Assembly: GCA_041666845.1 (NCBI GenBank)
Contig: JBAYGC010000003.1
Span: forward strand, 25,007-89,006
Origin: Patescibacteria group bacterium
GTDB taxonomy: Bacteria > Patescibacteriota > Patescibacteriia > UM-FILTER-42-10
Reading direction: 5' to 3'
DNA: 64,000 bases
Numbering within the stretch: the first letter of the stretch is position 1; every line of letters starts with the position of its first letter. Both the position numbers and the translations under genes were made by a program. A model generated the notes under the pieces. The model ran no database searches. It was given only the letters and a program-made list of their open reading frames with translations, and was not told where the DNA came from. Shown here one piece after another: positions 3,545 through 51,271 of this stretch.

Positions 3545-3711
3545 TATTCATAATTAAAAAATCTGCGGTAATCACCACAGAAAAACAGCTTGTTTTGTAC
3601 CTCGGTAGGATTTACGGCCATTTTTGTGGCCACCTACTGTCTGTGGCGATATTTAGTTGTAATTCCCAGTTTACACTCTTAAAATAAATCGTCAAGTACC
3701 AATCAGGAAAT

Positions 3712-7772: not shown

Positions 7773-7801
7773 TTGACATTTTATATATGTTGTGCCATAA
7801 T
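7773..7801 (+). promoter_or_regulatory. sigma70-like promoter P1 of the giant surface-protein gene (TTGACA-17-CATAAT)
   Basis: TTGACA 7773-7778, 17-nt spacer, CATAAT 7796-7801. Confidence 0.4.
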
Positions 7802-7804
7802 CTA

Positions 7805-7832
7805 TTGACAAATTTTGTAATTGTGCTATATA
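7805..7832 (+). promoter_or_regulatory. sigma70-like promoter P2 (TTGACA-16-TATATA with TG extension)
   Basis: TTGACA 7805-7810; tgcTATATA 7824-7832; about 100 nt upstream of the ATG at 7933. Confidence 0.4.
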
Positions 7833-7932
7833 TAGCATGTTACTAAAAATATAAAACTCTGCCTGGCGACCGCTAGAAGTTACCGGCAGTACTTGAAAAA
7901 TAAATAATCTAATCATTAGCACTAACCACACA

Positions 7933-10900
7933 ATGAACGCTAATCATTACAACTCGAACCCGAAGAAACGGGGGAAGTTTTATCGTGTCGTCAACATTAT
8001 TGTCATGACGGCTTTTTTATTTAATATGACCGCAACTCAGGGGCTTTTAATGCTGTCCCCTGCTCAAGCGCAGGCAACACAGGACAAATATACTCTGTGC
8101 CATGCTACAGGTAGCGATACTAACCCTTGGGTTAGGATTCATGTTCCAGAGTCTGCCTTACCCGCACACCTTGATGGAAATGGCACTCCCCTGGCAGGAC
8201 ATGAAGACGATGTATATTTAGGCTTGGATAATGCCGATCTACTGCAATGTCCCACACCACCAGTAAGCTGTCCGAATGTTTTTGGGGACAATTTTGAGAG
8301 TTATTCAGTAGGCACAATTCCATTACCCTGGTCGCAAAATTATGGGGTAACAATAGAAGATATAAATGGAACGCATGAAAAAATTGCAAAAATGAATTCC
8401 AGTGAAAGTCATGATGAAGAAAGAATGTGGACCACGATTGATACTTCAGGCCGTACTAATCTAAAACTGCGTTATGATCAAAAAACTGATGGTCTTGAAA
8501 GAAATGAGCAGGATGTTTTTACCTTAAAATACAAAATCAACAGTGAATCCAGTTGGAATGTATTGTACCAAACAGATGTTAATGACAGTTGGGATCATAT
8601 GGTCTTCAACTTACCTAATGCAAACCAAATCACTATTAGCTTTGGCCTACTAGGCACAAATGAAAACGATAAGGCGTTTGTTGATAATGTAACCTTATCC
8701 GGCTGTGTTGCAAACGTATGCGGTGACGAAACAGTTGGCGGTGACGAAGAATGCGATGATGGAAATGTAAATGACGGTGACGGATGCAGTGCAACTTGTA
8801 CTATTGAAACCTGCACTGACACAGATAATGATACAATCTGTGACGATATAGATAACTGCCCATCAATACCAAACCCAAGTCAAAACGATGCCGATGCTGA
8901 TGGTGTCGGTGATGCATGTGATATGTGCGCAGGTGCCGATGATGCATTAGATAATGAAGGTGATGGAATACCAAACGGTTGTGATAATTGTCCTTGGGAA
9001 CCAAACTGGGATCAAACAGACACAGATAACGATGGTGTAGGGGACGCGTGTGATGAACCGGTTTGCGGTGATGGCAATTTAGATGAACCACAAGAAGAAT
9101 GCGACGACGGAAATGGTGAAAATGGTGACGGATGTTCCGCACAATGTACATTAACCTATAATATCCAAGGACAGAAATGGAACGATGAAGACAATGACAG
9201 TTATTGGGATGATAATGAAAGTCCTCTTGCAGGAGTAGAGATAACATTAGATGGCGGAAATAGCGGAACAGTATACACAAATGCGAACGGTGAATACGAA
9301 TTTTCCGGTTTGCTTCCAAATAACTACACCGTTTGCGAAGTAGTTCAAGATGGATGGGAACAGTCGCTACCTGGCACGGGTTCAGGAGACTGTTACGAAA
9401 TAACACTGCCCGATGACGGTCAAACCACTTATAATTTTGGCAATCATCAGATAGATAATGTTACAATCGTCGCATATAAAATTGTCTGCACAGAAGAATC
9501 CGACCTACCTAACTGGGGAAATGGCGGAGAGAACATTACTGCGGCAACTGCCCAGAATTGGGTAGACAGCCACGATTCATGTGAATTTGAATCAGATTGG
9601 AATTTCCAATGGCGTGTAGATAGTGGCAACCCATACAATCCAGGCGATAATACTGGTGAATCTGTTGGCACCGATTGGACAACATTTGGTCTTACCGATG
9701 GAAATGGAATGACATCCACTGAAATTGATTTTGATCTCGCAGACAAATTTTGGTTCCGTGAAGTTATGCAGCCAGGATATATTCCTTTCACCTATAACGT
9801 TGCAGGAAATAACAGCAATAATGTTTCAGCCGAATTCTACTGCAGCTCAGATGTCTTAAACTATGACAACTTAGAATGGATTGATAATATGACTCCGGGC
9901 GAAACATATCATTGTGTTGCCTGGAACGTTCAAGCTCAACCGACTAAAGGTGACCTGACAATCTGTAAATACAATGATGTTGACAGCGATGGTGAATATT
10001 CCGACCTGATTGACACTCCTCTGCAATGGGAAATGAATGTTGAAGCTATGTCTGGAGTAGCGGATGGTAGTATTTGGGGTACCGGTACAAACAGCGAGAC
10101 CGGTTGTGTTACGCTTGCTGATATGTGGCTCGGAGAATATCGCGTCACTGAAACAGCTGTAGACGGTTGGTCACCAACCAATCCGGTAAGCGGAGATCAA
10201 TCAATAGAACTTACTGCCGAAAACCCAGATCAGACTGTTCGATTCCTAAACGAGCAGGTTTATGACCTGCATGGTTACAAATGGAATGATTTGGACGGTG
10301 ATAGATATCCTGATTGTAATCCGGTTAAAGGAGCTGAACTGACAACAGCCGCTACTCCCCCGCTGGATTGTGAACCAAGACTTTCAGGTTGGACAATCTT
10401 TATTGATGAAAATGAAAATGGAATTCTGGATGGCGAGGAACAGTCAACTATTACTTCAGATGATCCGGAACACTTAGGCTGGTATTGGTTCGAAGATCTC
10501 CCAGCCGGCGATTATCGTGTCTGTGAAGTACAGCAGTCTGACTGGGCACAAACCTATCCTCAAACCGCTGACGGCTGTCACACAGTAACACTCCCGACAA
10601 TGACCGAAGGTGACACCTGTATTTCAGAATATGCTCTCAATGGAGTAGATAACGCGCCTTCAATCTGTAACTTTGGTAATATTCACGACAAAGGCGATTT
10701 GACAATCGTTAAATACGATGATGATGAGAATCTGATGGCCGAAGTAGAATTCCAAATTGATGGTGAAACATACTGGACTAATGGTAATGGCGAAATCGTA
10801 CTAGAAGATATTTTGACCGGCTATCACATTGTAGAAGAAATGGGCATGGATAATTATACCTTTACATCTGTAACTGGTGATAATTGCACAAACAGCAATC

Positions 10901-13296
10901 CGTCAGCCGCAAATGTTGTGGAAGACGGAACAACCTGCACATTCACCAACACCCGCAATACTGGTGATGTGAGTGGTATGAAATATGAAGATTTGAACGG
11001 TAATGGAATCCGTGATTGCGCAATTCCTGCAAAAAGTCTTGGAATAATTAATGTAAATGATTCCGAAGATCCGGAAGTGTGTGAACCAGCGCTCCCCGGT
11101 TGGACAATCAATCTTGCTTTTAACGCATGTTCTGAAAACAGCTCTGACTACGACTTGAGCAATGATGGAGAACTAGATCTCTCAGACGTTGCTATGATGG
11201 CGCAGTATCTGGAAACACCAAATAATCCGCAGGGCGACATGAATGATGACGGTTTAACGAATCAAGCTGATTTCAATTGTTTTTCCGCCATATACACTGA
11301 CAGTTCTCTGCCGGCTATTGCTGATAAGTCTGACGTGACCGATGAAGATGGTACCTACAGCTTCAAAGGTCTGACCCCTGGATCTTACAACGTCTGGGAA
11401 ACACTAGATAATAATCCTGGCGATGCTCACGGGGGTTGGATTCAAACCAGTACGCCTGTTGTCCATACCGTATTAATCGGCGCCGGTGATGAAATAACCG
11501 GTGAAGACCAAAATTTCGGTAACCAATATGTCGGTTACTGCGGTGATGAGGTTGTGAACAATGGTGAAGAATGTGATTACAATAGTAGTTATGGAGTTCC
11601 TGAAAACTACCATTGTACTCAAGAGTGCCAATTGCAGGAAGATCCTTATTACTTAGTTGATGGTTATAAATATGAAGACTTAGATGGAAATGGCACTTGG
11701 AATGAAGCATATGAACAGCCACTAAACGGCTGGGAAATCTGTTATGCCTATGAACCATTGGACAGAGTAGAAGACATTGCATTCTCATTTGACTCCTTTG
11801 CGCTCGGAATTATGGAAGATACTGATAATTGCGTAATGACCGGCAGTGGCGAAGAATGGCCAGATGGTTATTATCAATTCAAATTCTACAACCCGGGGCA
11901 TGTTACTCTAACTGAAACACCACAGCCGGGATCTGGATATACCCAGACCGAACCTGTAGCCGGAGCACCTTGGGAAATAGAAATGGCGGAAAACCCTGAG
12001 TTACCGCAGTACAACTTCGGCAACCAGCCGGACTTCAGCGTTAATATTGAAAAATCAGCCAGCGTTACTACAATCGGACAAGCTGAGCAATTCGGTTATA
12101 CCATTAACTGGGGATTAACCGGGATAATAACTGCTGATCAAGTTATAATCACTGACACTCTACCCGCTGATGTTTCATTTGTCTCTGCAACAGACAGTGG
12201 AATTTATGACAGTGGTACGCATACCGTAGCTTGGACGCTCAATAATATTGCTCCGGGAACCACCGGTAGCTTCGGTGTAACTGTTCAAGCACTAAGTAAT
12301 GTGACTAACGGCGAGGAATTGTTAAATACCGTAGATATCTTGGGAACCAAATATCTGGAAGCTCCAGCCGAAGCCAGTGCATTAGCAGGTCCGGTACTTA
12401 CCAGAATTGACCGTTCCGACACAGCAAACGCAACTGTAACCGTAGTTGTTCCGGATGTTGCCGCTCCTCTACTGCAGATTACTAAAGATGCCAGCGTGGC
12501 TACGGCTGACGCCGGCGACACTGTAACCTATACTGTAGTCGTAACCAACGTTGGCTCTGCAAAAGCGGTAAATGTCATGGTTGATGATACCCTGCCTGCC
12601 GGAATGACCTTTGTGGACGGTGGCGGAACAACTGTGGCGTTAGTACTTGGTGATATTGAGATCGGGCAGTCCAAAACAACCACTTATGACGTGAAAATAG
12701 CGGATAACGCGACGTCCGGTTCTTATGAGAACTTAGCAGTCGCTTCTGCCGACAATCATGATGATATATCGGACTCCGCGATTGTCGAGGTTGAAAACCC
12801 GGTTGTTCTGGGTGAAACCACTGAAGCGGAATTGGCACTGATCAAAACCGCCGATGTTGAATACACCAACCCGGCCGGAACAGTGGAATACACGCTGACT
12901 GTAACCAATAACGGCACGGAAGACGCCCAAAATGTCGTCCTGACTGACCAATTACCGGACGGATTCGTATTTGAAGGCACAACTGATGTCGTAAAAGTGT
13001 GGAATTTCAGCACAATCGCTGTCGGTGCAGCCGAAACCGTTACCTATAAGGCAACCGTAAACGCTAACACTACAGCAGGAATGTACGAAAACGTGGCATT
13101 AGCCAAAGCGGACAATTCCGACGATGCCGGTGCTTCTGCTATAGTAGAAGTACGTGCCGTATCGGTCTTGGGTGCGCTGGTCGATACCGGTACCACCACC
13201 CGCGACTACCTCCTGTATATCGGCGGCGTGATGCTGGTGATCTCTGGAATCTGGTTTTTTACCAGAGAAAAGAACCTGTCACACCACTCCAAGTAG
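7933..13296 (+). CDS. giant secreted surface protein (1787 aa): signal peptide, Cys-rich repeat, TSP type-3 Ca-binding repeats, SdrD/Cna B-like domains, dockerin-like repeat, DUF11 repeats, C-terminal LVDTG sorting-like signal plus TM plus basic tail
   Basis: Signal peptide ..LLMLSPAQA; C-x-DGN-x-DGDGCS repeat; D-x-D-x-DG-x-x-D-x-C/DNCP repeats; multiple [14 protein letters not shown] SdrD-B-like modules; [16 protein letters not shown] dockerin-like; [29 protein letters not shown]11 repeats; C-terminus [32 protein letters not shown]. Confidence 0.8.
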
Positions 13297-13316
13297 GCTA
13301 GAATCTTCGGACTTTA

Positions 13317-13357
13317 AACACCCCCACACCCATTAATGGGTTTGGGGGTGTTTTGAT
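13317..13357 (+). terminator. rho-independent terminator of the first giant gene
   Basis: aaCACCCCCACACCC-atta-aTGGGTTTGGGGGTGtttt hairpin plus T-run, 20 nt after the stop. Confidence 0.7.
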
Positions 13358-13703
13358 TTACCGGATTAATCTACTTGCCAAAATTAGATGAAATATGGTC
13401 TAGCCTATTGACAAAAAAACTGTAAACTGTAAGATGTAGGAGCTATAAATAGTTCTTTAGGCGTTGCACATTATCATGGAGGAAGAACACGAGCTTATGC
13501 TAGTGTTTGGGGGGAATAGAAAACCAACAAAAGGTTATAAAAAAACCAAAATAAAAGAGTACTAGAAGCATACACCTTTGAAAATCGCTATATTTAGCGA
13601 ATTTGTAACTTGTTGTTGGTTTTTTGTATTCATAAAAAACCTTGCAAATTAGCACATTTAATATGAAATAATTCCCTCTTGATAGGGACTAGAAACAAGA
13701 ATA

Positions 13704-13804
13704 GTTCCTGAGCGCCTGTGGTGAGCACAGTCGAACCAAAGTCGAAGGACAATATAACAAATACTTCGACAGAGTTTATCCCGATGAATATCGGGACTCA
13801 GGGG
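13704..13804 (+). repeat. copy C of the palindromic repeat element, 30 nt upstream of the second giant gene
   Basis: aGTTCCTGAGCGcctgtgGTGAGcacaGTCGAAccaaaGTCGAAGGACaat..aCTTCGAcag..gACTCAGGGGATAATt. Confidence 0.6.
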
Positions 13805-13833
13805 ATAATTAAAAAATAATTTACCAAAATACA

Positions 13834-16800
13834 ATGAAAATTAATCTACTACCTAAGAAGAAAGCGGTATGGAAAATGACCTATAAATCATTCCATATTG
13901 TTGCGTTAATTGCCCTAATATTTAATATGTCTTCAGTTGGGGTATTTTTTACCCCGAATACAGCTCTTGCTGCCGAAAAAACATCGGAAACAGTTGATAA
14001 AACCACCTGTGCGGAAGGTGAAAAATGCGAAGATACCGGCACAATCCTGATCAAAAAATTCCTGGATCTGGATAGGGATGGCGTTCGTGATACCAATGAA
14101 ACATTACTGCCAAACTGGCATTTTACTATTGTAAACGGTGCATATAGTACTGAAGGTGCTACCAACAGTGAAGGTGTGCTGACTCTACTTGATATGCCAA
14201 TTGGTACCTACCAGGTAACTGAAACACTGCAGCCGGGCTGGACTAATACCACACCCCTGACCCAGTCAGCAGTTGTTACGAAGGACAACACAACTATTCT
14301 GCATTTCGGTAATATTGAGCAACATATTGGAAACCTCAGAATCAAGAAATATAACGACTTAAACAGTGATGGCGTCAAACAGACAAACGAACCGTATATG
14401 ACCGGCTGGCATTTTGACGTTACACAAAACGGCCAATTTATTGCTGACGGTAATACCGGAGAAGACGGTGATTGGCTGATTATTGAAAACCTGCCGGTTG
14501 GAATATATACAGTTACAGAAACCCAGCAGGACGGGTGGATAAATACTGATCCGGGCACCAACCCAATCAAGAAAGATGTTAATGTTACAGAAAATACTAT
14601 TACATATCCCACAAATGTGTGGTTCGGTAATGCTGAAATTCCAGGCGAATGCAAATTGGAAATAACAAAATCAGTAAATAAGACCGAAGCAGAGCCTGGC
14701 GATACGCTGGAATACACTTTGTCCTATGAAAACGTCGGAACAGCAGACTGCACCGGTGGTGGAGTACAGCTTTTTGACAATCTGGACAGCAGGCTGACAT
14801 ACAACGGCACTCACTCACAGGATAATACCGATCATGATATAACCTTTGAAGGTAATTTTGACGGAACTGATCCGGTAGCCAATGCACACGTGGTCAGTCC
14901 GGGCGAATCCGGTCATGTCACATTTCAGGCAACTATCACTGAAGATCTGAAGTGCGGTGAAAATAATATTCCGAATAAATACAGAATCTGGAGCAATGAA
15001 ACCGGTGATATCTGGAGCAATGAAGTGAACACAAGCGTTTACAAAGAATGCTACGGATCACTGAAAGTTATCAAGCATGTTGATTTCGGTGAAGCAACAC
15101 CTGATATGTGGGAATTTACAGTTCCGGGATACGGAACCCAGTCCCCTATTGACGGTCAAGATTATGTGATCTTCTCCCAGCTTCCTGAAGGACTATACTC
15201 AGCAACAGAAAGCACAATCCCCGGTTACCATCAGGTATCTTCTACCTGCAACAACGTACAGGTAAACCCGGGCGAACAGGCAGAATGCGTCTTCCACAAT
15301 ACCAAGGATACTTTCTGCAAAATGAATTTCACAAAATCTGTTGATAAAGAAAATGCATTACCAGGCGATGTCGTTACCTATACTCTGAATTATGAAAACA
15401 CCGGCGACGCAGACTGCACCGGTGGTGGCGTGAAAATATATGATGATCTGGATAATAAATTAACCTATGTCGATAATTCTCTTACCGGTAATGAATACAA
15501 CGGTAATGGCGACGGAATATCTCTGTTCGAAGAATTCGACGGCGTTAATCCGCTGGCCAACGCACATGAAGTAATCCCCGGTGAATCGGGTGTCATTACC
15601 TTCCAGGCAACAATTACCGATGATTTGGAATGCGGTGAAACCATCATCCCGAACAAAGCCAAACTCTGGAGTAATGAAACAGGGTATTTCTGGAGTAATG
15701 AAGTAAACACAACTGTCTTCAATCAATGCTACGGATCGTTGAAGGTAATCAAATACGTGGATGAAGGCGATGCAACTCCTGATATGTGGGACTTCACGAT
15801 TGCCGAACACGGGACACTGTCCCCTGCTGAAGGCGATAACTATGTTGTCTTCACACAGATGCCGGAAGGATTCTATGCGGCATCAGAGAGCAATCTGGCG
15901 GGCTACCACCAGGTATCCTCAACCTGCGATAATGTTGAAGTTATCACTGGCCAACAGGCGGTTTGCGAAATCCACAACACAGTTGATCACTATGATATTA
16001 ACGGATACAAATGGAACGATCTGAACGGCAACGGTGAATGGGATCAGAGTGAACCGGGAAAATCCGGTTGGACAATCAATCTGAATACTTTTGAAGGAAC
16101 CCTTCTGGATTCAACCGTTACCTCAGATAATAACGAAGATCTTGGTCACTATGAATTCTCCGATTTACTACCTGGCATCTACCAGGTTTGCGAAGCGCAA
16201 AGTGAAGGCTGGTACCAGACCTATCCGTCCGAAAACAACGGCTGCCATTTTATCTACCTCGGACCAAATGCCGATAATGAAGTAATGTCCTATAACTTCG
16301 GTAACACTGGTTATGGTGAAATTTCCGGAGCAAAATTTGACGATGCCAATGGTAATCACATCTGGGATACCGGCGAACCGGGACTGGAAGACTGGACCAT
16401 AGCGCTCCAATCCAGCTGTTCTGAAGTATTTGCTGACTACGACTTAGAATCTGATTCGGTAATCAACCTGTCAGATGTAAGCCTGTTTGCTGAAAAATAC
16501 GCCCTAGGCAATACACTAGTTGATCTAAACGGTGATGCGGTCGTGAATAACTATGACCTTAACTGCTTCAAAAACGTACTCAGCGCGACCCCGGAAACTA
16601 TGACGGAAAATCCGATCATTACAAAGACAACTGATGCTAGCGGTTATTATCAATTTACCGGTTTGGAAACAGGCGCGTACAATGTATCTGAAGTACAGCA
16701 GACCGGCTGGGCACAAACATTCCCAGAGAGTAACGGAGGCGCTTACGGACCGATTGTTATTACTTCCGGAAAAGTATCAACCGATAATGACTTCGGTAAC

Positions 16801-17691
16801 CGAAGAATCCCGACTAAAGTAAAAGACCCGATCCTGACGATTACCAAAGATGTCAATGTTGCATTCGCCAATCCAGAAGATACTGTTAAATACACCGTGG
16901 TTGTATCCAATATTGGTGAAGCGACAGCTATCAACGTAGTAATGACCGACGTCCTACCAAAAGGATTAACCTATCCGGAAGGCGGCACAACCAAAACTTT
17001 CTCACTGGGTGACATCGAACCGGGTAAATCCGTAACCAAGACTTACGACGCAGTTGTTGGTAAAGACACTAAAAAGGGAAATTATGTAAATACCGCCACT
17101 GCTAAAGCTGATAATCATGATGAAGTATCCGACGACGCTACGTTGGAAGTCAGGATTCCTGAAGTCAAAGGTGAAACCACGCCGGAACTGGAAATTACAA
17201 AAGAAGTAAATGTTGAATTCGCCAATCCCGGTGACGTAATCTCCTACACCATTACTGTAAAGAACGTTGGCGATGGCGAGGCAATCAATGTTATACTGAC
17301 TGACAGACTACCTGAAGGATTCGTCTATGACGGAACAGATGAAGTGGTTAAAGTATGGAACCTGGGCGATATGGCGCCGAATGCTGTAAAAACAATAACT
17401 TACGCGGTAAAAGTACAAAGCAATGTAACTGCCGGTGTCTACGAAAACCTGGCAGTAGTAGGAGCGGATAATGCTGCTGATAAATCAGCAAAAGCAGATG
17501 TGGAAGTAAGATTAATTTCAGTATTAGGCGCTGACTTGCCTGATACCGGAACCTCCACAATTGATTATCTGTACTACCTAATTGGAATAGTCACATTCAT
17601 TCTTGGCTTATGGACAATACAGCGAAAAAATTCCGGGAAATCAATCGGAAAGCAAATAAGCGCAATCCAAACTCTCGCAAGAAAGCGGTAA
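13834..17691 (+). CDS. giant LPXTG-anchored surface protein (1285 aa), paralogous to 7933..13296; contains a ~225-aa internal tandem duplication
   Basis: Signal peptide; SdrD/Cna B-like modules (NGYKWNDLNGNGEWD); dockerin-like DYDLESDSVINLSDVSLF; DUF11 repeats; canonical sorting signal LPDTG (17536-17550) plus hydrophobic segment plus QRKNSGK. Tandem units 14650-15315 and 15316-15987 share CKxxxTKSV..CTGGGV..GESG.TFQATIT..SNETG..WSNEVNT..CYGSLKVIK. Confidence 0.8.
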   Translation: MKINLLPKKKAVWKMTYKSFHIVALIALIFNMSSVGVFFTPNTALAAEKTSETVDKTTCAEGEKCEDTGTILIKKFLDLDRDGVRDTNETLLPNWHFTIVNGAYSTEGATNSEGVLTLLDMPIGTYQVTETLQPGWTNTTPLTQSAVVTKDNTTILHFGNIEQHIGNLRIKKYNDLNSDGVKQTNEPYMTGWHFDVTQNGQFIADGNTGEDGDWLIIENLPVGIYTVTETQQDGWINTDPGTNPIKKDVNVTENTITYPTNVWFGNAEIPGECKLEITKSVNKTEAEPGDTLEYTLSYENVGTADCTGGGVQLFDNLDSRLTYNGTHSQDNTDHDITFEGNFDGTDPVANAHVVSPGESGHVTFQATITEDLKCGENNIPNKYRIWSNETGDIWSNEVNTSVYKECYGSLKVIKHVDFGEATPDMWEFTVPGYGTQSPIDGQDYVIFSQLPEGLYSATESTIPGYHQVSSTCNNVQVNPGEQAECVFHNTKDTFCKMNFTKSVDKENALPGDVVTYTLNYENTGDADCTGGGVKIYDDLDNKLTYVDNSLTGNEYNGNGDGISLFEEFDGVNPLANAHEVIPGESGVITFQATITDDLECGETIIPNKAKLWSNETGYFWSNEVNTTVFNQCYGSLKVIKYVDEGDATPDMWDFTIAEHGTLSPAEGDNYVVFTQMPEGFYAASESNLAGYHQVSSTCDNVEVITGQQAVCEIHNTVDHYDINGYKWNDLNGNGEWDQSEPGKSGWTINLNTFEGTLLDSTVTSDNNEDLGHYEFSDLLPGIYQVCEAQSEGWYQTYPSENNGCHFIYLGPNADNEVMSYNFGNTGYGEISGAKFDDANGNHIWDTGEPGLEDWTIALQSSCSEVFADYDLESDSVINLSDVSLFAEKYALGNTLVDLNGDAVVNNYDLNCFKNVLSATPETMTENPIITKTTDASGYYQFTGLETGAYNVSEVQQTGWAQTFPESNGGAYGPIVITSGKVSTDNDFGNRRIPTKVKDPILTITKDVNVAFANPEDTVKYTVVVSNIGEATAINVVMTDVLPKGLTYPEGGTTKTFSLGDIEPGKSVTKTYDAVVGKDTKKGNYVNTATAKADNHDEVSDDATLEVRIPEVKGETTPELEITKEVNVEFANPGDVISYTITVKNVGDGEAINVILTDRLPEGFVYDGTDEVVKVWNLGDMAPNAVKTITYAVKVQSNVTAGVYENLAVVGADNAADKSAKADVEVRLISVLGADLPDTGTSTIDYLYYLIGIVTFILGLWTIQRKNSGKSIGKQISAIQTLARKR

Positions 17692-18260
17692 GAATTAGTG
17701 CGTTTATTGCGATTGGAGTTGGGGTAGTTATACTAGCTTATCCTTTTATCCCCTCCGTCCGGTTCCTACTGTTCCCGCCAAAAATCAATCCGCAAGTAAT
17801 TGATGATTCAAAAGAACTGGTTTCGGGACTACCGCTGTCAGCAGATAAACAAATCAGCGAAGACTATTCCGGCAATCGGCTAATTATTCCTAAGATAGGA
17901 GTAAATGCCAAGGTAGTCGAAGGCGAAAACGATCAGGCACTGCTTAGGGGCGCGTGGCGCATGCCACAGACCTCCACTCCTGATAAGGGGGGTAATACGG
18001 TCATTACCGGCCATCGTTTCCGTTTCCGGCCACCAAACAACACAACTTTCTATTTACTCGACAAGCTTGAGCAAGGCGACAAAATAGCTGTTGTTTGGGA
18101 AGGAAAAGAGTACTATTACCGGGTAATCGAAACCAAAGTAGTAACCCCGGACCAGGTGGAAGTGATTAACGCCACCAATGACCCGATCCTTACTCTATTT
18201 ACCTGTACTCCCCTGTTTACCTCCCAGAAAAGGCTGGTTGTCATCAGTGAGCTGATCTAA
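17610..18260 (+). CDS. srt: sortase (transpeptidase), membrane-anchored; overlaps the substrate gene by 82 nt
   Basis: N-terminal basic stretch plus TM; conserved His (VITGHRF), active-site TLFTC (TLxTC) motif and downstream Arg (KRLVV). Confidence 0.8.
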   Translation: MDNTAKKFREINRKANKRNPNSRKKAVRISAFIAIGVGVVILAYPFIPSVRFLLFPPKINPQVIDDSKELVSGLPLSADKQISEDYSGNRLIIPKIGVNAKVVEGENDQALLRGAWRMPQTSTPDKGGNTVITGHRFRFRPPNNTTFYLLDKLEQGDKIAVVWEGKEYYYRVIETKVVTPDQVEVINATNDPILTLFTCTPLFTSQKRLVVISELI

Positions 18261-18288
18261 TCTCAGCAAAATATTACCTAAATTACAA

Positions 18289-18320
18289 CAGTCCCGCATC
18301 CGCGGGACTGTTTTGGTTTT
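18289..18320 (+). terminator. rho-independent terminator after sortase (CAGTCCCGC-atc-CGCGGGACTG + TTTTGGTTTT)
   Basis: Perfect 9-bp GC-rich stem with T-run. Confidence 0.7.
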
Positions 18321-18360
18321 AGATCTTATCTCAACCTCAATTAATCGGTTCGGGGGTTGA

Positions 18361-18417
18361 CCCCGTTAGAGGATTTCCTCTAACGGGGTTGACAAATATT
18401 TTATTATATGGTAATAT
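18361..18417 (+). promoter_or_regulatory. perfect 12-bp inverted repeat CCCCGTTAGAGG-ATTT-CCTCTAACGGGG abutting a sigma70-like promoter (-35 TTGACA 18389-18394, 17-nt spacer, -10 TAATAT 18412-18417) of the receiver gene; flanked by direct GGGGTTGAC repeats
   Basis: Seen directly in sequence. The palindrome shares its CCCGTTAG/CTAACGGG half-sites with the mltG and asnS leaders. Confidence 0.5.
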
Positions 18418-18470
18418 TGATTGTTGAATCAAAATAACGTAATATTAAAGTACGTTAATAAATAACTTTA

Positions 18471-18848
18471 ATGTACATGGTCAAAAAAAAGATATTAGTT
18501 ATTGAAGACGAACGGCCGCTTTTAAATGCCCTTTCAGCAAAACTCCAAGTGGAAGGGTTCGAAGTAATTGAAGCGGAAAATGGGGAGTTGGGCCTAAAAC
18601 TAGCTCTGAGTAAACAGCCGGATCTGATTCTCTTAGATATAATTCTGCCGAAGATGGATGGTATAACAGTACTGGAGCATTTGCGAGAAAATACCTGGGG
18701 TAAAACCGCAAAAGTAATTATTCTTTCTAACTTGAATGACTGGAATAATACCAGTTCCGCAGTGAATCTCAATGTTCACGACTATCTGGTAAAGTCAGAC
18801 TGGCAGATAAAAGATGTCATTAAAAAGGTAAAAAGTAAACTTAAGTAA
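18471..18848 (+). CDS. stand-alone response-regulator receiver domain (CheY-like)
   Basis: KILVIEDE..DLILLDIILPKMDG..KVIILSN.. receiver motifs with phospho-acceptor Asp; no output domain (125 aa). Confidence 0.8.
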   Translation: MYMVKKKILVIEDERPLLNALSAKLQVEGFEVIEAENGELGLKLALSKQPDLILLDIILPKMDGITVLEHLRENTWGKTAKVIILSNLNDWNNTSSAVNLNVHDYLVKSDWQIKDVIKKVKSKLK

Positions 18849-18874
18849 TATATTTTTAGATCAAGCTGAACGTA

Positions 18875-20419
18875 ATGAGTAACTTAATTAAAGATTTTGC
18901 AAATAAGGCAAAAAACCGATTAACTTATCAGTCGGCAGTGTCTTTGCGTACCGCAAAAACTTATTTTATACCACATGAAGATAACGGACATAAACCGTAC
19001 ATCATCAGACCGGGAGCGTTACGATTCTACAGTATAGTATTAATCATTACCAAACTGGCGGTAACCGGGTTTATGTATGCTTCTTTCCCTTCGCCAGCAT
19101 ACTTTTCCAGCGCATCCTCGGCAAACATTATTAATCTGACCAACAGTTCACGCGAAGCAAGCGGTCTGAGTGATTTACAGATATCAGAAAAATTAAATAT
19201 TGCCGCCTATCAAAAAGCACAGGATATGGTTAAGAACAACTATTTCAGTCATGAGAGCCCTTCCGGTGCCCAATTTTGGAATTGGGTAATCGGCGCCGGA
19301 TATCAGTACACAACGGCCGGTGAAAACCTGGCGATGGATTTTAATTCCGCAGAAGCGGTTCATAATGCGTTAATGGCCTCCGCAACCCACCGAAAGAATA
19401 TACTTAATGACAAATTTTCGGAGATCGGAGTTTCAATAGTTTCTGGAAAGATTAACGGCAAAGACACAACTATCTTAGTCGAGATGTTTGGTAATCCAAA
19501 AGTGGCGGCAGTTGAACCAGTCGTCGTACCTCCTTCAGTTACCCCGACTACACCAAATGTTAATACTGCTGTTACCAACACGAATACGGCGCCAACTCCC
19601 CCACTCGCGCCCGTATACACCGGGGAGATTGTCAGCAAGATGAGTGATTCTTTGAATATAAAACCCGATGAAACAATTGACTATTGGGTTGATGTCAAGA
19701 ACACCGGCAACACTACTTGGCTTACTTCCGGTAGTAATTTTATCGCATTGAATGTCACCGATCCTGCCGGCAAGGAAAGTCAGTTTGCCAATTCCACCTG
19801 GCTGACAAAATACCGACCAACCAAAATTTCCGATAATATGGCACCCAACGGCATCGCAAGATTTTCCTTTAAATTGACCGCACCGAGCACTACGGGAACT
19901 TACGAAGAATCCTTTCAGTTGGTTGCGGAGAATATTACTTGGATTAACGGCAGTTATTTCAAACTACCCATTACAGTAACCAAGCCAGTTATAATAAACG
20001 CAAACACTGCTGCTCCGGTCAACAAGAATATCAATACTAATCTGAACACTAACACTGCTGCTCCAATAAATCAGAATACTAACGACGCGGTTATTGAGCC
20101 GAATTTTGTCGCTACGACAAACACGAACCTGTCGATCGAGCCTACTGATACGGATGTCACGCCATTTGTTGTTGCTGCCAATAATTCCGAAGAGGCTAAA
20201 GACTTCCTAAGTTTCCTTAATAAATATTCCAATATCATATTCTGGATAGTATTAATACTGGTGTCAATCTCCTTATTGATCAATACAATTGTCAAGATCA
20301 GGATACAGCATGCCAGCACCATCATTCCGAGTCTACTAGTAATCCTCCTGGCGTCCTTAATGCTGTTTATGAGATTCCACTTCATTCAGAATATCGGCAC
20401 ACATCCGATTATTATGTAA
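18875..20419 (+). CDS. membrane protein with CAP (SCP/PR-1, YkwD-like) domain, a beta-sandwich (NBR1-like) domain and Thr/Asn/Pro-rich linkers; C-terminal TM
   Basis: YkwD/CAP block REASGLSDLQISEKLNIAAYQKAQDMVKNNYFSHESPSG..GENLA..HNALMASATHRKNIL..FSEIGVSIV; two hydrophobic helices. Confidence 0.55.
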   Translation: MSNLIKDFANKAKNRLTYQSAVSLRTAKTYFIPHEDNGHKPYIIRPGALRFYSIVLIITKLAVTGFMYASFPSPAYFSSASSANIINLTNSSREASGLSDLQISEKLNIAAYQKAQDMVKNNYFSHESPSGAQFWNWVIGAGYQYTTAGENLAMDFNSAEAVHNALMASATHRKNILNDKFSEIGVSIVSGKINGKDTTILVEMFGNPKVAAVEPVVVPPSVTPTTPNVNTAVTNTNTAPTPPLAPVYTGEIVSKMSDSLNIKPDETIDYWVDVKNTGNTTWLTSGSNFIALNVTDPAGKESQFANSTWLTKYRPTKISDNMAPNGIARFSFKLTAPSTTGTYEESFQLVAENITWINGSYFKLPITVTKPVIINANTAAPVNKNINTNLNTNTAAPINQNTNDAVIEPNFVATTNTNLSIEPTDTDVTPFVVAANNSEEAKDFLSFLNKYSNIIFWIVLILVSISLLINTIVKIRIQHASTIIPSLLVILLASLMLFMRFHFIQNIGTHPIIM

Positions 20420-20589: not shown

Positions 20590-21006
20590 ATGAATTTCGT
20601 TAAAATAGTTCTCATTCCACTAAGCATTGCTCTGGTGGTACAATTCTCAAAGACAATCCCGGATACTTTCCGTGGCAAATTTCGATGGAAGAATATTTTG
20701 AATTACGGCGGTATGCCATCGGGCCATGGAGCACTAGTTGCTTCACTATGTACAATGGTCGGTATCGTTATGGGTATTGACACAGTAGAATTCGGAATTG
20801 CATGCGTTATGTCCGTAATCGTCCTAAGGGATTCCGTAGGGCTCCGGAGAATAATCGGTAAACAGGGCGAAGCGATCAATGATTTAAATCAGATAAATAA
20901 AAAAGTTCCTGCTTTGGAGGAACGCGTCGGTCATACTCCGTTTGAAGTAATGATGGGAGTTATGGTCGGAATCGGATTGTCTTTCCTGCTGAATTCTGTT
21001 GTATAA
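20590..21006 (+). CDS. divergent PAP2-family protein (DUF212/YuiD-like acid phosphatase-related membrane protein)
   Basis: GGMPSGHGALV motif characteristic of divergent PAP2; 138 aa, 3-4 TM. Promoter TGcTATAAT ends 7 nt before the ATG, so the mRNA may be leaderless. Confidence 0.55.
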   Translation: MNFVKIVLIPLSIALVVQFSKTIPDTFRGKFRWKNILNYGGMPSGHGALVASLCTMVGIVMGIDTVEFGIACVMSVIVLRDSVGLRRIIGKQGEAINDLNQINKKVPALEERVGHTPFEVMMGVMVGIGLSFLLNSVV

Positions 21007-29280: not shown

Positions 29281-31182
29281 TTATGTATTATAGGGGATTA
29301 TTGGTGGCTCGTATATTCTAGGAACCTTCTGCTTTAAATCACAATATTCGTTCACAAAGCCGTCACAGTCATCGTCGTATGGGGTGATGCATAATTCTCT
29401 GGCACCCGGGTTTACAGAACTCAAAGTATCGTCACAATCCGGTCCTAAAGTACAATCTGATCCATAACCGTCTAAATCATTGTCAACACAATGTTTTTCA
29501 TCAATCTGCCAATCACAATCATCGTCTAAATTATTATCTAATTCCGCAGCTCCCGGATAAACGTTAGCAGGATTTATGTAGTTACAGCTTAATGGCGCGA
29601 TTTTCCCTATGTTTATATCGTGATTTTCATCTATATCCACCCGCTTAAAATAAATATTACCCATCGAAACATAAGCAATAATGTCGAAGCCATCGCTGAT
29701 GTGCAACATTTCAGTGGCATACATATATGGGTCGGCAAGATCGATATTTCTCGATGCGGACCAACTTCCAGATTCAAGATCAGTCGTGTAGCTATATTTG
29801 ATCGAATCAACAGTCTGGTCTGGGCCGGAAGTCCAAACTAAATAGTAATAGTCATCTTTTTTGAAAATATGAGCCGACTCTGCCTTACCTCTGCCACCGG
29901 TAACACTTATCGGACCTAAATCTGTCCAGTCAATTAAATTACTTGATTTAGCTAAACCGATAACCATTTGATAAGTAAACGGGGTTGGCACAGTAGAATA
30001 AACCATATAGTAATATCCGTCATCATCCTTGAATACAAAGGGGTCTCTACATTGGTGACGCCAATCCCCTGATTCACCCCAGGCTGTCCAACTCAGATTA
30101 CAATCCCAGACACAACCATCACCAGTTGAATCATCACAATTATTGATCGGGTATCTGGTCCAAGTATTCAGATCTGAGGATGTCGCAATGCCGATTCTTT
30201 CCTTGTGCTCAGCCGGATCCGGAAGCGCATCAGTCACTCCGGTATAGAACATATAATACTTGTTGTCTTGATTATTATAAACAACTGATGGCGCCCAGAC
30301 ATGCTGATTATCCCAACCACCGCTAGTGGCAATGTTCAAAATCCCGGTTGCACTATTCCAATAATTCAGATTATTTCCTGATGCTTTTTGATAACCAAAG
30401 TCCATTGAATTAGCAGCGCAGGTTTGCCATAACGCACAACCAATCTCAGGGAATCTTATGTAATAACTATGTAAATAATTAGTCATACTATCATAATAAA
30501 TGGCAAAATCTTGAGCAAGATAACTTGGCGGGTTAAGCAAAAATGAGTTGTATGTCGAACAATATTCACCATTTAAAGAATTATAAAATTCTTTAGTATC
30601 ATTACAGTCCTGGCCAGGATCTGAATTATAACTTACAGGTAAACTGCCATTGGTACAAAGCTCAGAAGAGATATTAGTAGAAAAACCATCACCGTCCAAT
30701 TCGGAATAACCGATCATACTATACCAAGCAGAACTATCATAGTCATTACAGTCGTCGCCAATTTCTGCTGAATATCCAGAAGGCAAATCTTCACCAGAAC
30801 AAATATTTGTTAATAACTCAGTTGAAGAATAGTGACTGTCGCTATCTCTGTCCGGAAAACCAATCAAGATTCTCCAGATTTCTGGGTTAGCATCATCACA
30901 ATCATTACCATCATATAAACAACCATTGATTATGCCGCTATAAGGATATTCCCCGCGACCATCTCCATCCAGATCATCACACAAGACTGAAACTGACAAT
31001 TGCTCATTTAATATATTATTATCAGAAATACAGATATTAACTGCAGGGGTAGTCACATTTATTTCTGGATTTACAATTGCCAAAGCAAAGCCAGCAAAAT
31101 AAAAAATCGCCAACATCAAGGCGACAAAAACTGAAGTCCTCATCCATAAATTAATATAGTTTATATCTTTATATTTATTCAT
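29281..31182 (-). CDS. secreted protein with MopE-like Cys/Asp metal-binding motifs flanking a 5-bladed beta-propeller glycoside-hydrolase-like domain (GH43/GH32 clan-like)
   Basis: Signal/TM; repeats D-C-D-D-x-N-P-x-x-W / DGDG-x-G; WAPSVVY..YYMFYTGV, RDPFVFKDDDGYYYMVYST blocks reminiscent of GH-J/F propellers. Confidence 0.4.
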   Translation of the reverse strand: MNKYKDINYINLWMRTSVFVALMLAIFYFAGFALAIVNPEINVTTPAVNICISDNNILNEQLSVSVLCDDLDGDGRGEYPYSGIINGCLYDGNDCDDANPEIWRILIGFPDRDSDSHYSSTELLTNICSGEDLPSGYSAEIGDDCNDYDSSAWYSMIGYSELDGDGFSTNISSELCTNGSLPVSYNSDPGQDCNDTKEFYNSLNGEYCSTYNSFLLNPPSYLAQDFAIYYDSMTNYLHSYYIRFPEIGCALWQTCAANSMDFGYQKASGNNLNYWNSATGILNIATSGGWDNQHVWAPSVVYNNQDNKYYMFYTGVTDALPDPAEHKERIGIATSSDLNTWTRYPINNCDDSTGDGCVWDCNLSWTAWGESGDWRHQCRDPFVFKDDDGYYYMVYSTVPTPFTYQMVIGLAKSSNLIDWTDLGPISVTGGRGKAESAHIFKKDDYYYLVWTSGPDQTVDSIKYSYTTDLESGSWSASRNIDLADPYMYATEMLHISDGFDIIAYVSMGNIYFKRVDIDENHDINIGKIAPLSCNYINPANVYPGAAELDNNLDDDCDWQIDEKHCVDNDLDGYGSDCTLGPDCDDTLSSVNPGARELCITPYDDDCDGFVNEYCDLKQKVPRIYEPPIIPYNT

Positions 31183-31248: not shown

Positions 31249-31322
31249 TGGCGGGGGTGGAAGGTATCGAACCCTCGTCTCAGGTTTTGGAGACCTACAT
31301 TCTACCATTGAACTACACCCCC
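31249..31322 (-). tRNA. tRNA-Trp (anticodon CCA)
   Basis: GGGGGTG-TA-GTTC-AATGGTA-GAAT-G-TAGGT-CTCCAAA-ACCTG-AGAC-GAGGG-TTCGATA-CCTTC-CACCCCC-G-CCA; 74 nt. Confidence 0.85.
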
Positions 31323-31419
31323 ATTAGCCAAATTTTATTTTCTCTAAGTAACTGGGAAATGAAGTAATTCGGATTCTACCATTGCCACCGCCTTCGGCGG
31401 AAACGACACCCCCAACATT

Positions 31420-31551
31420 CTATTTGGTTTCCTTATGGACAGTATGTTTTTTGCACCATTTGCAATGCTTCTTGATCTCAAGTCTTTCCTTAAGAGTTTT
31501 TTTGTTCTTTTTGGAATGATAATTAATGCGCTTGCATTCTGTACATTCCAT
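31420..31551 (-). CDS. rpmG: 50S ribosomal protein L33 (43 aa)
   Basis: Translates to [43 protein letters not shown]; matches the L33 consensus (ECTECK..NY...KN.....LEL.KYC..C.KHT.HKE.K). Below the ORF-track length cut-off. Confidence 0.8.
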
Positions 31552-31619
31552 TTTTATTAGATTATCTTGTGACATCTGTATTTTCTAATATGATTAATTA
31601 ATTTATATATGAAGATCTA

Positions 31620-31736
31620 CCGAGCAAATCAGGAGCGCACCCAGGCAGTTGCGAAGCAAATGCATCGGGGAGCACAGATTTGCAAAGAATAATGGGGCCC
31701 CCAAAAAACGCACAGCGGTTTTTGGGGAAAGGGGCA
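31620..31736 (+). repeat. tRNA-associated repeat RptA, copy 3 (between tRNA-Thr(UGU) and the rpmG promoter)
   Basis: CCGAGCAAATCAGGAGCGCACCCAGGCAGTTGCgaaGCAAaTGCatcggggagcacagatttgcaaag..GGGGCCCCCAAAAAAcgcacagcggTTTTTGGGGAAAGGGGCA. Confidence 0.55.
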
Positions 31737-31801
31737 CAAATGCGGAAGGCGGAGTGAATGCAAATTTTGCATGCACGTAGCCTGAAGCATTTGATGACCC
31801 G

Positions 31802-31876
31802 TGGAGCCGAGAAGAGGATTCGAACCCCCGACCTGCTGTTTACAAAACAGCTGCTCTACCACTGAGCTATCTCGGC
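31802..31876 (-). tRNA. tRNA-Thr (anticodon UGU)
   Basis: GCCGAGA-TA-GCTC-AGTGGTA-GAGC-A-GCTGT-TTTGTAA-ACAGC-..TTCGAAT..-TCTCGGC-T-CCA; 75 nt. Confidence 0.8.
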
Positions 31877-31924
31877 ATCATTGGCGGGCAAAACAGATGC
31901 TCTGCCAGCTGAACTAGGTGGTCA

Positions 31925-32010
31925 TGGTGGGCCGGGAGGGATTCGAACCCCCGAAGGCTAAAGCCAACAGATTTACAGTCTGTCCCGTTTGACCGCTTCG
32001 GTACCGACCC
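31925..32010 (-). tRNA. tRNA-Tyr (anticodon GUA), long variable arm
   Basis: 86 nt; anticodon stem ACAGA/TCTGT with loop CTGTAAA; variable arm TTGGCTTTAGCCTTC; T-loop TTCGAAT; acceptor GGGTCGG/CCGGCCC. Confidence 0.8.
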
Positions 32011-32034
32011 ATGCATAGTTTTAACGAACCCAAA

Positions 32035-32151: not shown

Positions 32152-32174
32152 TCCCGCTGAGCGGGAATGACCCG

Positions 32175-40180: not shown

Positions 40181-40205
40181 ATTTTTATTTCCAGGATAAG
40201 ATGGT

Positions 40206-51268: not shown

Positions 51269-51271
51269 ATG

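Follow-up and report, generated by a model that had tools for sequence, protein, structure and literature searches.

A sortase-associated locus for the predicted display of giant fibrillar adhesins in a Patescibacteria bacterium

A block of five genes within a 64-kb stretch of DNA from a Patescibacteria (CPR) bacterium (64,000 nucleotides, hereafter the window) probably serves sortase-dependent surface display, in which wall-anchored, Ca-binding fibrillar adhesins would bind through variable heads (Table 1). Giant surface proteins accompanied by a sortase are a familiar kind of system, and sortases have previously been reported from over half of CPR genomes (PMC6744442); what is mildly new is limited to a conserved leader RNA and to the repeated occurrence of this sortase beside a membrane CAP protein. 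The five open reading frames named in the original prediction are all present on the plus strand, and the block is indeed the sole long plus-strand stretch, the remaining plus-strand runs being about 2 kb each. A CPR genome had also been correctly surmised: identical proteins have been deposited from Patescibacteria MAGs under the names "class E sortase" and "CAP domain-containing protein". The window further holds the wall-synthesis genes YceG, UppS and an MraY-type transferase.

Table 1. Features of the locus, in window coordinates.
Feature	Position	Strand	Details
Promoter-like site 5' of G1	7773-7801	+	TTGACA-17-CATAAT with TG extension; consensus match only, 11/12, the region's best
G1 ORF	7933-13296	+	1787 aa
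G1 variable N-terminal head	8083-8706	+	residues 51-113, CHATGS..NPW module; residues ~103-258, rare beta-rich domain
Two DUF4215/Myxococcus-type Cys-rich repeats flanking thrombospondin type-3 Ca-binding repeats, G1	8701-9156	+	HMM
Dockerin-like double EF-hand Ca loop inside SdrD_B-type module, G1	11110-11307	+	Dockerin_1 26.6 bits, cut-off 22.9
Three CLIPPER (DUF11) stalk domains, G1	12004-13158	+	Pfam, repeat profile
G1 sorting signal	13177-13293	+	LVDTG, hydrophobic helix, basic tail
Terminator-like hairpin 3' of G1	13317-13359	+	15-bp stem, one mismatch, 6-nt loop, T-rich tail
Conserved non-coding leader of G2-sortase unit	13400-13700	+	alignment of window, L003, L004
Promoter-like site in G2 leader	13408-13435	+	consensus match
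G2 ORF	13834-17691	+	1285 aa
Dockerin-like insert in one G2 SdrD_B module	16435-16608	+	Dockerin_1 on segment 22.3 bits, just under cut-off 22.9
Two CLIPPER domains, G2	16810-17517	+	
G2 sorting signal	17536-17688	+	LPDTG, hydrophobic helix, basic tail
G2/sortase overlap	17610-17691	+	82 nt
Sortase ORF	17610-18260	+	216 aa
Two strong terminator-like hairpins 3' of sortase	18287-18312, 18356-18393	+	automatic scan
Promoter-like site 5' of receiver-CAP pair	18389-18417	+	10/12 consensus with TG
Receiver ORF	18471-18848	+	125 aa
CAP protein ORF	18875-20419	+	514 aa
DUF212 (divergent PAP2) membrane protein	20590-21006	+	loosely associated envelope neighbour

The two giant proteins, G1 and G2, are paralogs as had been proposed, their C-terminal ~300 residues being 48% identical (E = 6e-75), and both carry signal-peptide-like N-termini through which they would be exported by Sec. 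Profile HMMs recovered every domain type assigned across the locus, namely CLIPPER/DUF11, SdrD_B/SpaA, the Myxococcus Cys-rich repeat, TSP-3, dockerin-like, sortase, receiver and CAP. Whole-protein searches with Pfam and NCBIfam profiles matched DUF11/CLIPPER (1.8e-44 and 2.3e-45 in the two giants), SdrD_B (1e-14 and 3e-26) and SpaA; TSP_3 and Dockerin_1 pass on isolated segments only, TSP_3 scoring 21.5 bits on the whole protein (cut-off 25) and 32.7 bits on its segment. G1 is acidic and Cys-rich (17% D+E, 3.4% K+R, 46 Cys), and its signal peptide is followed by a 'CHATGS..NPW' module, a rare all-beta head, a Cys-rich/TSP-3 Ca-binding block (DUF4215, 36.7 bits; TIGR02232 Myxococcus Cys-rich repeat, 5.5e-15), and CnaB/SdrD_B-type modules, of which one holds a dockerin-like insert. 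Three CLIPPER domains and the sorting signal complete the protein. G2 proceeds from its signal peptide through two CnaB/SpaA modules, two units each combining a CLIPPER-like and a SpaA_2 domain, two SdrD_B modules and two CLIPPER domains to its own sorting signal. CnaB-type E-box motifs (Y.V.E...GW) are present in six copies. This mixture had been regarded as a rare combination, a view that is not supported, as stalk, Ca-binding and adhesive domains occur together typically in fibrillar adhesins (PMC12617251).

The CLIPPER domain has been described as a stalk of such adhesins (PMC12617251), and the repeat profile built here matches the crystal structure 9IFR at 1.3e-5. This structure belongs to the Acinetobacter silvestris adhesin B9T28_05395 (PMC12617251), which likewise places a tandem CLIPPER stalk beside its anchor. 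The invariant Lys of the window repeats and the Asp of their 'tDxLP' motif align with the isopeptide Lys and the LNDTL Asp of 9IFR, respectively; no alignment was obtained for the isopeptide Asn. Sequence similarity is low (28 bits), and the A. silvestris protein is held by an OmpA-like anchor in a diderm, whereas the window giants bear a sortase signal. Once outside the cell, G1 and G2 would fold into long, acidic, Ca2+-binding stalks of CnaB/SdrD_B-type and CnaA-like CLIPPER modules, probably stabilised by intramolecular isopeptide bonds. Their overall plan recalls the MSCRAMM-type adhesins of Gram-positive bacteria, such as SdrD and Cna of S. aureus, which share the Sec signal peptide, the repetitive Ca-binding stalk of SdrD_B/CnaB type, the LPxTG-type signal with hydrophobic helix and basic tail, and an adjacent or dedicated sortase. 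Unlike them, the giants of this CPR bacterium lack a DEv-IgG 'A' ligand-binding region and a Ser-Asp repeat (36 bits with the SdrD model NF012181, whose cut-off is 2500), add CLIPPER domains to the stalk, carry orphan domains with Cys-rich/TSP-3 blocks as heads, and in one case end in LVDTG.

The binding end would be the variable N-terminal head, comprising in G1 the CHATGS module, the rare beta domain and the Cys-rich/TSP-3 block. A search with the G1 head matched 321 representative proteins, nearly all through the CHATGS..NPW module alone, and P0128, P0164 and P0241 are among the few that match query residues 55-210. The G1 ortholog at the related locus L004 is without the head, where the G1 stalk is 60% and the sortase 82% identical to those of the window. 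Alternatively, G1 and G2 could build a Ca2+-cross-linked coat or a matrix between cells, with Ca sites of the Cys-rich, TSP-3 and dockerin-like types serving self-assembly rather than the binding of a host ligand. The highly acidic composition and many Ca-binding motifs would suit this role, and the domain and homology searches recovered no ligand-binding domain of known specificity, and no recognisable lectin or host-binding domain, in the heads. It is nonetheless unlikely: the match to the Myxococcus cell-cohesion protein MtsC that would favour it (9e-4) reaches 18 bits against a cut-off of 350, fibrillar adhesins show the same succession of signal peptide, head, repetitive stalk and anchor (PMC12617251), and the fast turnover of heads among close relatives is more typical of partner-specific adhesins. 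Such exchange of the G1 head would fit adhesion to a partner cell or surface.

That both giants are secreted sortase substrates, as originally predicted, is supported by their C-termini. Tripartite sorting tails occur within the 64-kb window in G1 and G2 only, and they are recognised as predicted signals from their pattern and from their conservation in relatives, LV[D/E]TG being kept in L003, L004 and L010; the NCBIfam matches listed for the giants include none to an LPXTG-anchor model. The LVDTG of G1 is a non-canonical sorting motif. Across the Patescibacteria loci, the substrates of this sortase family carry LAETG (16), LATTG (9), LAATG (8), LPxTG (~17) and xV[D/E]TG (~11). The hydrophobic helix and basic tail would retain each giant in the membrane until the sortase cuts after the Thr of LPDTG or LVDTG and transfers the protein to a peptidoglycan precursor, giving a covalently wall-anchored fibril.

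The sortase itself (Pfam Sortase, 3.8e-30) consists of a basic N-terminal tail, one transmembrane helix and a catalytic domain with His135, Cys199 (within TLFTC) and Arg208, which are invariant across 20 homologs and would perform this cleavage. Its substrate preference cannot be read from class membership, because it falls below every class-specific NCBIfam cut-off (~80 bits against 140-165). It resembles the class E sortases of Actinobacteria (Streptomyces SrtE1/SrtE2, LAxTG) in its N-terminal membrane anchor, in the mostly LAxTG signals of its family's substrates and in the NCBI name of the identical protein. It differs in scoring 79 bits with NF033747 (cut-off 160), in belonging to a family that also takes LPxTG and xV[D/E]TG and is often paired with a membrane CAP protein, and in its weaker sequence relationship to SrtE1 (5CUW, 9e-8) than to class C structures (8T28, 2e-16); solved sortases are its sole sequence relatives in the PDB.

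This closeness to class C, also the top NCBIfam class score, raises a further alternative, in which G1 and G2, along with the multiple CLIPPER or VWA proteins at related loci, are pilins that a class C-like sortase polymerises head to tail into a covalent fibre instead of anchoring them singly. SpaA-type pilus clusters do share tandem isopeptide-domain substrates with an accompanying sortase, G2 weakly matches the SpaH/EbpB major-pilin model (2.8e-7), and related loci hold 2-4 substrates, including VWA-domain proteins that recall tip pilins. A pilus is quite improbable, however, given that a YPK-type pilin motif is absent from both giants, that the sortase has neither a DP[FWY] lid motif nor, as its chain stops right after the catalytic Arg, a C-terminal membrane anchor, and that the class C score is about half the cut-off (83.5 against 160 bits). 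No second, housekeeping sortase was found in the 64-kb window, and the dominant LAxTG signals resemble those of housekeeping class E substrates. Known pilins are far smaller than proteins of 1285-1787 aa.

Wall-anchored adhesins remain the preferred reading, which is also supported by retention of the gene overlap and operon layout in relatives. The 82-nt overlap reported in the original prediction is genuine: ATG 17610 is the sole start codon 5' of the sortase membrane helix, and L003, L004 and the P0007 contig keep overlaps of 79-85 nt. The shared segment is read in one frame as the basic cytoplasmic tail of G2 and in the other as the sortase's basic N-terminal tail, and the two genes would be co-transcribed and probably translationally coupled. 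Upstream, the leader (z = -3.5) contains a long hairpin (~13516-13626) with a U run on its 3' side, and is ~90% identical across the window, L003 and L004, the flanking proteins of which are 60-85% identical; no Rfam family was found for it. The terminator-like hairpin preceding the leader, 3' of G1, was read by eye at 13317-13352 and is absent from the automatic scan list, and it is kept in the alignment of L003 and L004.

The original prediction treated all five genes as one undescribed system and proposed a synteny comparison, in which the block proved conserved in close relatives. A survey of 80 species-representative Patescibacteria sortase loci nevertheless speaks against that proposal. 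In 45 of 62 species-level loci the gene directly 5' of the sortase encodes a CLIPPER/SdrD-type substrate, an order that is classical and the rule in Patescibacteria here, whereas a receiver is found at only 3 of 80, adjoining the sortase in close relatives and L079 only; the receiver is therefore best read as a lineage-specific neighbour or insert. A single regulated system, in which the receiver governs how the adhesins, sortase and CAP protein are expressed or how active they are, is improbable. In its favour, gene order is shared with relatives whose sortases are as little as 62% identical and also with the more remote L079, the receiver (Response_reg, 2.3e-21) has an intact acidic phospho-acceptor pocket (E12/D13, D56, S85, K108), and only 27 nt separate it from the CAP gene, with which it would share one transcription unit. 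Against it, the close relatives retain unrelated flanking genes too (PCMT, DUF212, HHH, UppS, AMMECR1), so conservation of the block reflects general synteny. The stand-alone, CheY-like receiver also lacks an output domain and a nearby kinase, no histidine kinase having been found among the 10 largest other ORFs of the window. Finally, two terminator-like hairpins and a promoter-like site of its own lie between the receiver and the sortase.

Membership of the CAP protein in the system stands in part. Among 73 loci, 35 encode it directly 3' of the sortase, and it commonly accompanies this sortase family, but CAP paralogs occur without a sortase; the reverse link is weaker, with a sortase directly 5' of CAP in only 9 of 51 CAP-anchored loci. 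From its N-terminus, the protein comprises a conserved cytoplasmic motif, a transmembrane helix (53-71) and the CAP/SCP domain (80-206; Pfam CAP, 3.1e-17), followed by a Pro/Thr/Asn linker, an NBR1-type FW Ig domain (249-368, matched by N_BRCA1_IG), a second linker and two transmembrane helices bearing a conserved RIQH...FHF motif. The CAP fold is confirmed by Foldseek matches to 4IFA of B. anthracis and 4D53 (BB0689) of Borrelia. In contrast to these and other bacterial CAP/SCP proteins, such as YkwD and Rhodobacter DalA, the window protein spans the membrane several times and carries conserved motifs in its cytoplasmic and membrane parts, and it scores below the cut-offs for YkwD (111 against 171 bits) and DalA (43 against 200 bits), although the NCBIfam DalA model does match its CAP domain (4.4e-11). 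DalA binds peptidoglycan and has been proposed as a scaffold for transpeptidases (PMC10470522). The window protein could attach to wall material or hold the sortase in place. Beyond it, a DUF212 gene also recurs 3' of the sortase, in 18 of the 50 loci having at least 6 kb of flank.

The locus comprises six consecutive open reading frames on the plus strand between 7933 and 21006, encoding two giant paralogous surface proteins (G1 and G2), a sortase, a stand-alone receiver, a CAP-domain protein and a DUF212/PAP2-like membrane protein. Its flanks on the opposite strand are housekeeping and envelope genes (PCMT, a mannose-1-P guanylyltransferase-like protein, YceG, UppS and AMMECR1), and the remaining plus-strand runs of the window are of about 2 kb each. 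The window belongs to a JGI metagenome contig of 265 kb. The genes and domains named in the original prediction were confirmed, and its motif reading proved right throughout in whole-protein Pfam and NCBIfam scans and in isolated-segment scans for TSP_3 and Dockerin_1. The placement of the DNA in a CPR genome was likewise correct, as proteins identical to the sortase and the CAP protein are deposited as Patescibacteria MAG proteins, the former titled "MAG: class E sortase [Patescibacteria group bacterium]" and the latter "CAP domain-containing protein". The transcription signals, which are consensus-scan predictions only, together with the gap of 27 nt between the receiver and CAP genes, suggest four likely transcription units, namely G1, G2 with the sortase, the receiver with the CAP gene, and DUF212.

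Positions of the locus genes, signals and other features within the window
Feature	Position	Strand	Size or basis
Promoter-like site before G1	7773-7801	+	consensus scan; best of region
G1	7933-13296	+	1787 aa
CHATGS..NPW module of G1	8083-8271	+	G1 residues 51-113
Hairpin with T-rich tail after G1	13317-13359	+	by-eye reading of sequence
Leader in G1-G2 spacer	13400-13700	+	
Promoter-like site before G2	13408-13435	+	consensus scan
Long hairpin in leader	13516-13626	+	
G2	13834-17691	+	1285 aa
G2/sortase overlap	17610-17691	+	82 nt
Sortase	17610-18260	+	216 aa
Two strong hairpins after sortase	18287-18312, 18356-18393	+	consensus scan
Promoter-like site before receiver	18389-18417	+	consensus scan
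Stand-alone receiver	18471-18848	+	125 aa
CAP-domain protein	18875-20419	+	514 aa
DUF212/PAP2-like membrane protein	20590-21006	+	
RNA and synthetase features	3547-3664; 31252-32250; 49868-52585	-	
Probable envelope/secreted proteins	29281-31182; 37187-38455; 39113-40297; 47796-49544	-	

The sortase passes the family models PF04203 (104.6 bits; cut-off 26.6) and TIGR01076 (84.3 bits; cut-off 39.35) and is built from a basic N-terminal tail, one membrane helix and a catalytic domain in which His135, Cys199 (within TLFTC) and Arg208 are invariant among 20 homologs and align to class C structures. Its assignment to a class is less straightforward. The class-specific NCBIfam models, with cut-offs of 140-165, all give about 80 bits, including those for class E (NF033747; 79.1 bits against 160) and class C (NF033745; 83.5 bits against 160). 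Among solved structures its best relatives belong to class C, which would point to a pilus polymerase, but this reading is ruled out as the main explanation: the DP[FWY] lid motif was not found in the sortase, nor a pilin motif in its substrates, and the protein ends 8 residues past Arg208, without a C-terminal membrane anchor. Among the substrates adjacent to sortases of this family a class E-like LAxTG dominates, while those of the window bear LPDTG and LVDTG. On these combined grounds we file the enzyme in no defined class, and it would behave as an anchoring sortase, either housekeeping or dedicated, rather than a pilus polymerase.

The substrates themselves are recognizable by their C-terminal ends, in which LPDTG (G2) or LVDTG (G1) precedes a hydrophobic helix and a basic tail. 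By pentapeptide, helix and tail these are cell-wall sorting signals of the LPXTG type, for which cleavage and covalent linkage to peptidoglycan are predicted. Orthologs retain LPDTG in G2 and LV[D/E]TG in G1; no credible signal of this type was found in the other open reading frames of the 64-kb window, and no LPXTG-anchor model appeared among the NCBIfam matches listed at E <= 0.01. Since xV[D/E]TG recurs among the substrates adjoining the sortase in the surveyed family, after the prevailing LAETG, LATTG and LAATG and then LPxTG, the odd LVDTG of G1 belongs to a recurrent variant. The overlap of G2 with the sortase gene is real, because the ATG at 17610 is the sole start codon ahead of the sortase membrane helix, and relatives with 62-85% sortase identity have overlaps of 79-85 nt. 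Read in two frames, this one stretch specifies basic tails for both proteins, cytoplasmic in G2 and N-terminal in the sortase, an arrangement conserved in relatives. The homologous protein entry P0034 and a reading frame from position 1169 of the relative locus L078 hold CLIPPER (DUF11 stalk) and sortase domains in a single ORF of 365-390 aa, through either true fusion or the merging of gene calls across the overlap.

Both giant proteins are assembled from stalk modules. DUF11/CLIPPER (PF01345) reaches 151 and 154 bits (cut-off 24.6) in three and four stretches of tandem copies, accompanied by SdrD_B (PF17210; 55 and 92 bits, cut-off 29.7) and SpaA (PF17802; 73 and 63 bits, cut-off 23.1). The DUF4215/Myxococcus Cys-rich repeat is matched by TIGR02232 at 5.5e-15; TSP_3 (PF02412; cut-off 25) rises from 21.5 bits in the whole protein to 32.7 bits in the isolated segment, and isolated segments score 26.6 bits in G1 and 22.3 bits in G2 for Dockerin_1 (PF00404; cut-off 22.9). 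CLIPPER has been described as the commonest stalk domain among fibrillar adhesins (PMC12617251). A profile of five repeats matches 9IFR, a crystal structure of CLIPPER, at 1.3e-5 and alone reached it, a phmmer search of the PDB with the G2 CLIPPER pair giving no match. The Lys and the Asp (tDxLP) invariant in these five repeats align to the isopeptide Lys and the LNDTL Asp of 9IFR, with the Asn falling outside the aligned stretch, and six E-box-like Y.V.E...GW motifs occur in the CnaB-type stalk modules. The two proteins are paralogs, 48% identical over the final 300 residues and about 38% over the SdrD-type modules.

G1 is very acidic (17% D+E), contains 46 Cys residues and begins with a variable head composed of a CHATGS..NPW module, a rare β-rich domain with a handful of relatives and a Cys-rich/TSP-3 block. 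The first of these, 'CHATGS..NPW.RI.V....A..H.....[10 protein letters not shown]...CP', is a short secreted module without a Pfam family; it is present in 321 representative proteins, often as the sole domain of secreted proteins of 100-250 aa and sometimes in up to six copies per protein, and a word-index search for its relatives returned only four short proteins. A single-sequence AlphaFold model of head residues 100-262 had a pLDDT of 41.7 and was not taken into the fold search. The G1 ortholog of the relative locus L004 is without this head, stalk identity is only 60% where that of the sortase is 82%, and G2 orthologs have some 300 extra residues. This modular, fast-evolving pattern is what partner-binding adhesins would be expected to show, and it points to no particular ligand.

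Close relatives (62-96% sortase identity) keep the whole block, but they keep the unrelated flanks too, so that conservation at this distance reflects general synteny. A more distant sample of 80 loci from GTDB species representatives (37-59% sortase identity) was also surveyed; it is labelled Parcubacteria, Falkowbacteria, Kerfeldbacteria, Portnoybacteria, Dojkabacteria, Saccharibacteria and Microgenomates, with some loci evidently mislabelled "Gammaproteobacteria", and its ORFs were searched with the domains of the window. A CLIPPER/SdrD-type protein ends at the sortase start in 45 of the 62 loci with enough upstream DNA, and a same-strand CAP gene starts no more than 800 nt downstream of the sortase in 35 of 73 (44 of 73 when counted anywhere within 10 kb). 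Substrate, sortase and CAP gene stand together in 24 of 58 loci, DUF212 lies downstream in 18 of 50, and the receiver is present in only 3 of 80. Label-free clustering of all ORFs returned the same ranking, with the CAP family in 45 of the 80 loci, DUF212 in 21 and a TM/BIG-like/TM family in 20. The new five-gene system put forward in the original prediction is not supported: the core is a standard sortase-substrate locus common in the lineage, and the receiver is a passenger. What goes beyond the ordinary is that sortase and CAP gene are repeatedly paired, that the sortase clade, with its LAxTG and xVDTG signals, falls in no defined class, and that G2 is preceded by a strongly conserved leader of about 300 nt with a long hairpin.

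The pairing was also examined from the other side. Among 80 fetched CAP-anchored metagenome loci, 51 had enough upstream DNA, and a sortase lies directly upstream in nine of these and within 6 kb in 19. Six of the seven long CAP+Ig forms nearest the window protein have an upstream sortase, and shorter paralogs are mostly without one. The sortase-CAP linkage is real and not exclusive; as the CAP family extends beyond the members linked to a sortase, no dedicated partnership is claimed.

The second membrane family in the survey (N-terminal TM, BIG-like Ig region, Pro/Thr linker and C-terminal TM helices) has no member in the window. Where the CAP gene is missing, it occupies the position immediately behind the sortase (L013 10600-11688, L016, L035, L038, L064 and L074); in other loci it follows the CAP gene directly (L037, L041, L052, L059 and L073). 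A C-terminal hairpin common to it and the CAP family was sought and is not shared. Typical Patescibacteria sortase loci are carried by many 'binchicken' TPA MAG contigs (L011, L015, L023, L028, L033 and others) under the title 'uncultured Gammaproteobacteria bacterium', which looks like a placeholder or error.

The window CAP protein matches PF00188 (63.9 bits; cut-off 21.1) and scores 111 bits against a cut-off of 171 for YkwD (TIGR02909), and the scans also recovered an NBR1-type Ig domain. Sortase-adjacent members share a common architecture, in which a conserved cytoplasmic motif, KHYFIPHEGNxHxP, and a single TM helix precede the CAP domain, itself usually accompanied by an FW/NBR1 Ig domain. 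Low-complexity linkers and two C-terminal TM helices, in which RIQH...FHF residues are conserved, complete the protein. An alignment-based AlphaFold model (mean pLDDT 70.9, both globular domains above 85) drew Foldseek matches that include the Bacillus anthracis SCP protein (4IFA), Borrelia BB0689 (4D53) and Staphylococcus aureus SAV1118 (4H0A), as well as the FW domains of NBR1 and ILRUN; the modelled fold is thus confirmed as CAP, but gives no function. The NCBIfam model for DalA matches the CAP domain at 4.4e-11, far under its cut-off. DalA binds peptidoglycan and is a proposed scaffold for L,D-transpeptidases (PMC10470522), and by analogy the CAP protein may have a wall-binding or sortase-positioning role. 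In the related metagenomic proteins P0314, P0315, P0320, P0326 and P0328 an FW/NBR1-type Ig domain is fused to SpoIID (PF08486), which hints at a cell-wall context for that of the CAP protein.

A tentative and rather improbable reading would join these parts into a three-part surface-anchoring module conserved across Patescibacteria, in which one or more CLIPPER-type substrates, a sortase of a clade outside the described classes A-F and a polytopic CAP protein follow one another. The CAP protein, with its cytoplasmic motif, its extracellular CAP and FW Ig domains and its conserved two-helix membrane hairpin, would be a cofactor that binds wall precursor or peptidoglycan and positions or gates the sortase, much as the CAP-like DalA would scaffold L,D-transpeptidases, with the receiver and a conserved structured leader RNA added in this lineage for regulation.

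The receiver has a Response_reg domain (PF00072; 76.5 bits, cut-off 30.2) with the Asp pocket (E12/D13, D56), Ser/Thr (S85) and Lys (K108) residues present in its translation, and a scan of the ten largest remaining ORFs of the window showed no partner histidine kinase. The leader, which lies between G1 and G2 in the spacer, shows about 90% identity in relatives where that of the flanking proteins is only 60-85%, with counterparts at about 4970-5270 in L003 and 4990-5300 in L004. It contains a promoter-like site and the long hairpin (z = -3.5), followed by a U run; the frame of an internal ORF of 22-29 codons is not kept in L004. Rfam at gathering thresholds gave no family in the locus, and on the spacer only chance-level microRNA matches. 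The spacer may serve the G2-sortase unit as an attenuator or leader.

A life attached to other cells is presumed for Patescibacteria, and mechanistic work on this attachment is, to our knowledge, nearly all on type IV pili. Partner specificity could plausibly be determined by giant adhesins that are anchored to the wall and have fast-changing heads, and the locus provides concrete candidates in its two substrates, their sorting motifs and the enzyme. The bacterial CAP-domain family has, as far as we know, almost no known function; the sortase-CAP pairing, if functional, would offer a role for one of its proteins and an accessory factor for sortase biology. Current understanding is not overturned, the core being a textbook sortase-substrate locus in a lineage already known for sortases. 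More than half of CPR genomes are reported to carry them (PMC6744442), and single-genome papers mention them as well (PMC7143001). In the searchable literature on CPR and Patescibacteria sortases only passing mentions of the genes were found, and nothing on a CAP(YkwD)-sortase link, an absence that is not proof of novelty.

Elsewhere in the window lie four probable envelope or secreted proteins, none with a sortase signal: one combines a GH43 domain and a MopE-type metal-binding motif, another joins DUF2330 to a laminin-G domain, and the other two are DUF3048 paralogs. Rfam identified an L10 leader and four tRNA genes clustered within 1 kb, and two class II tRNA synthetase paralogs of the Asp/Asn/Lys type lie adjacent to one another.
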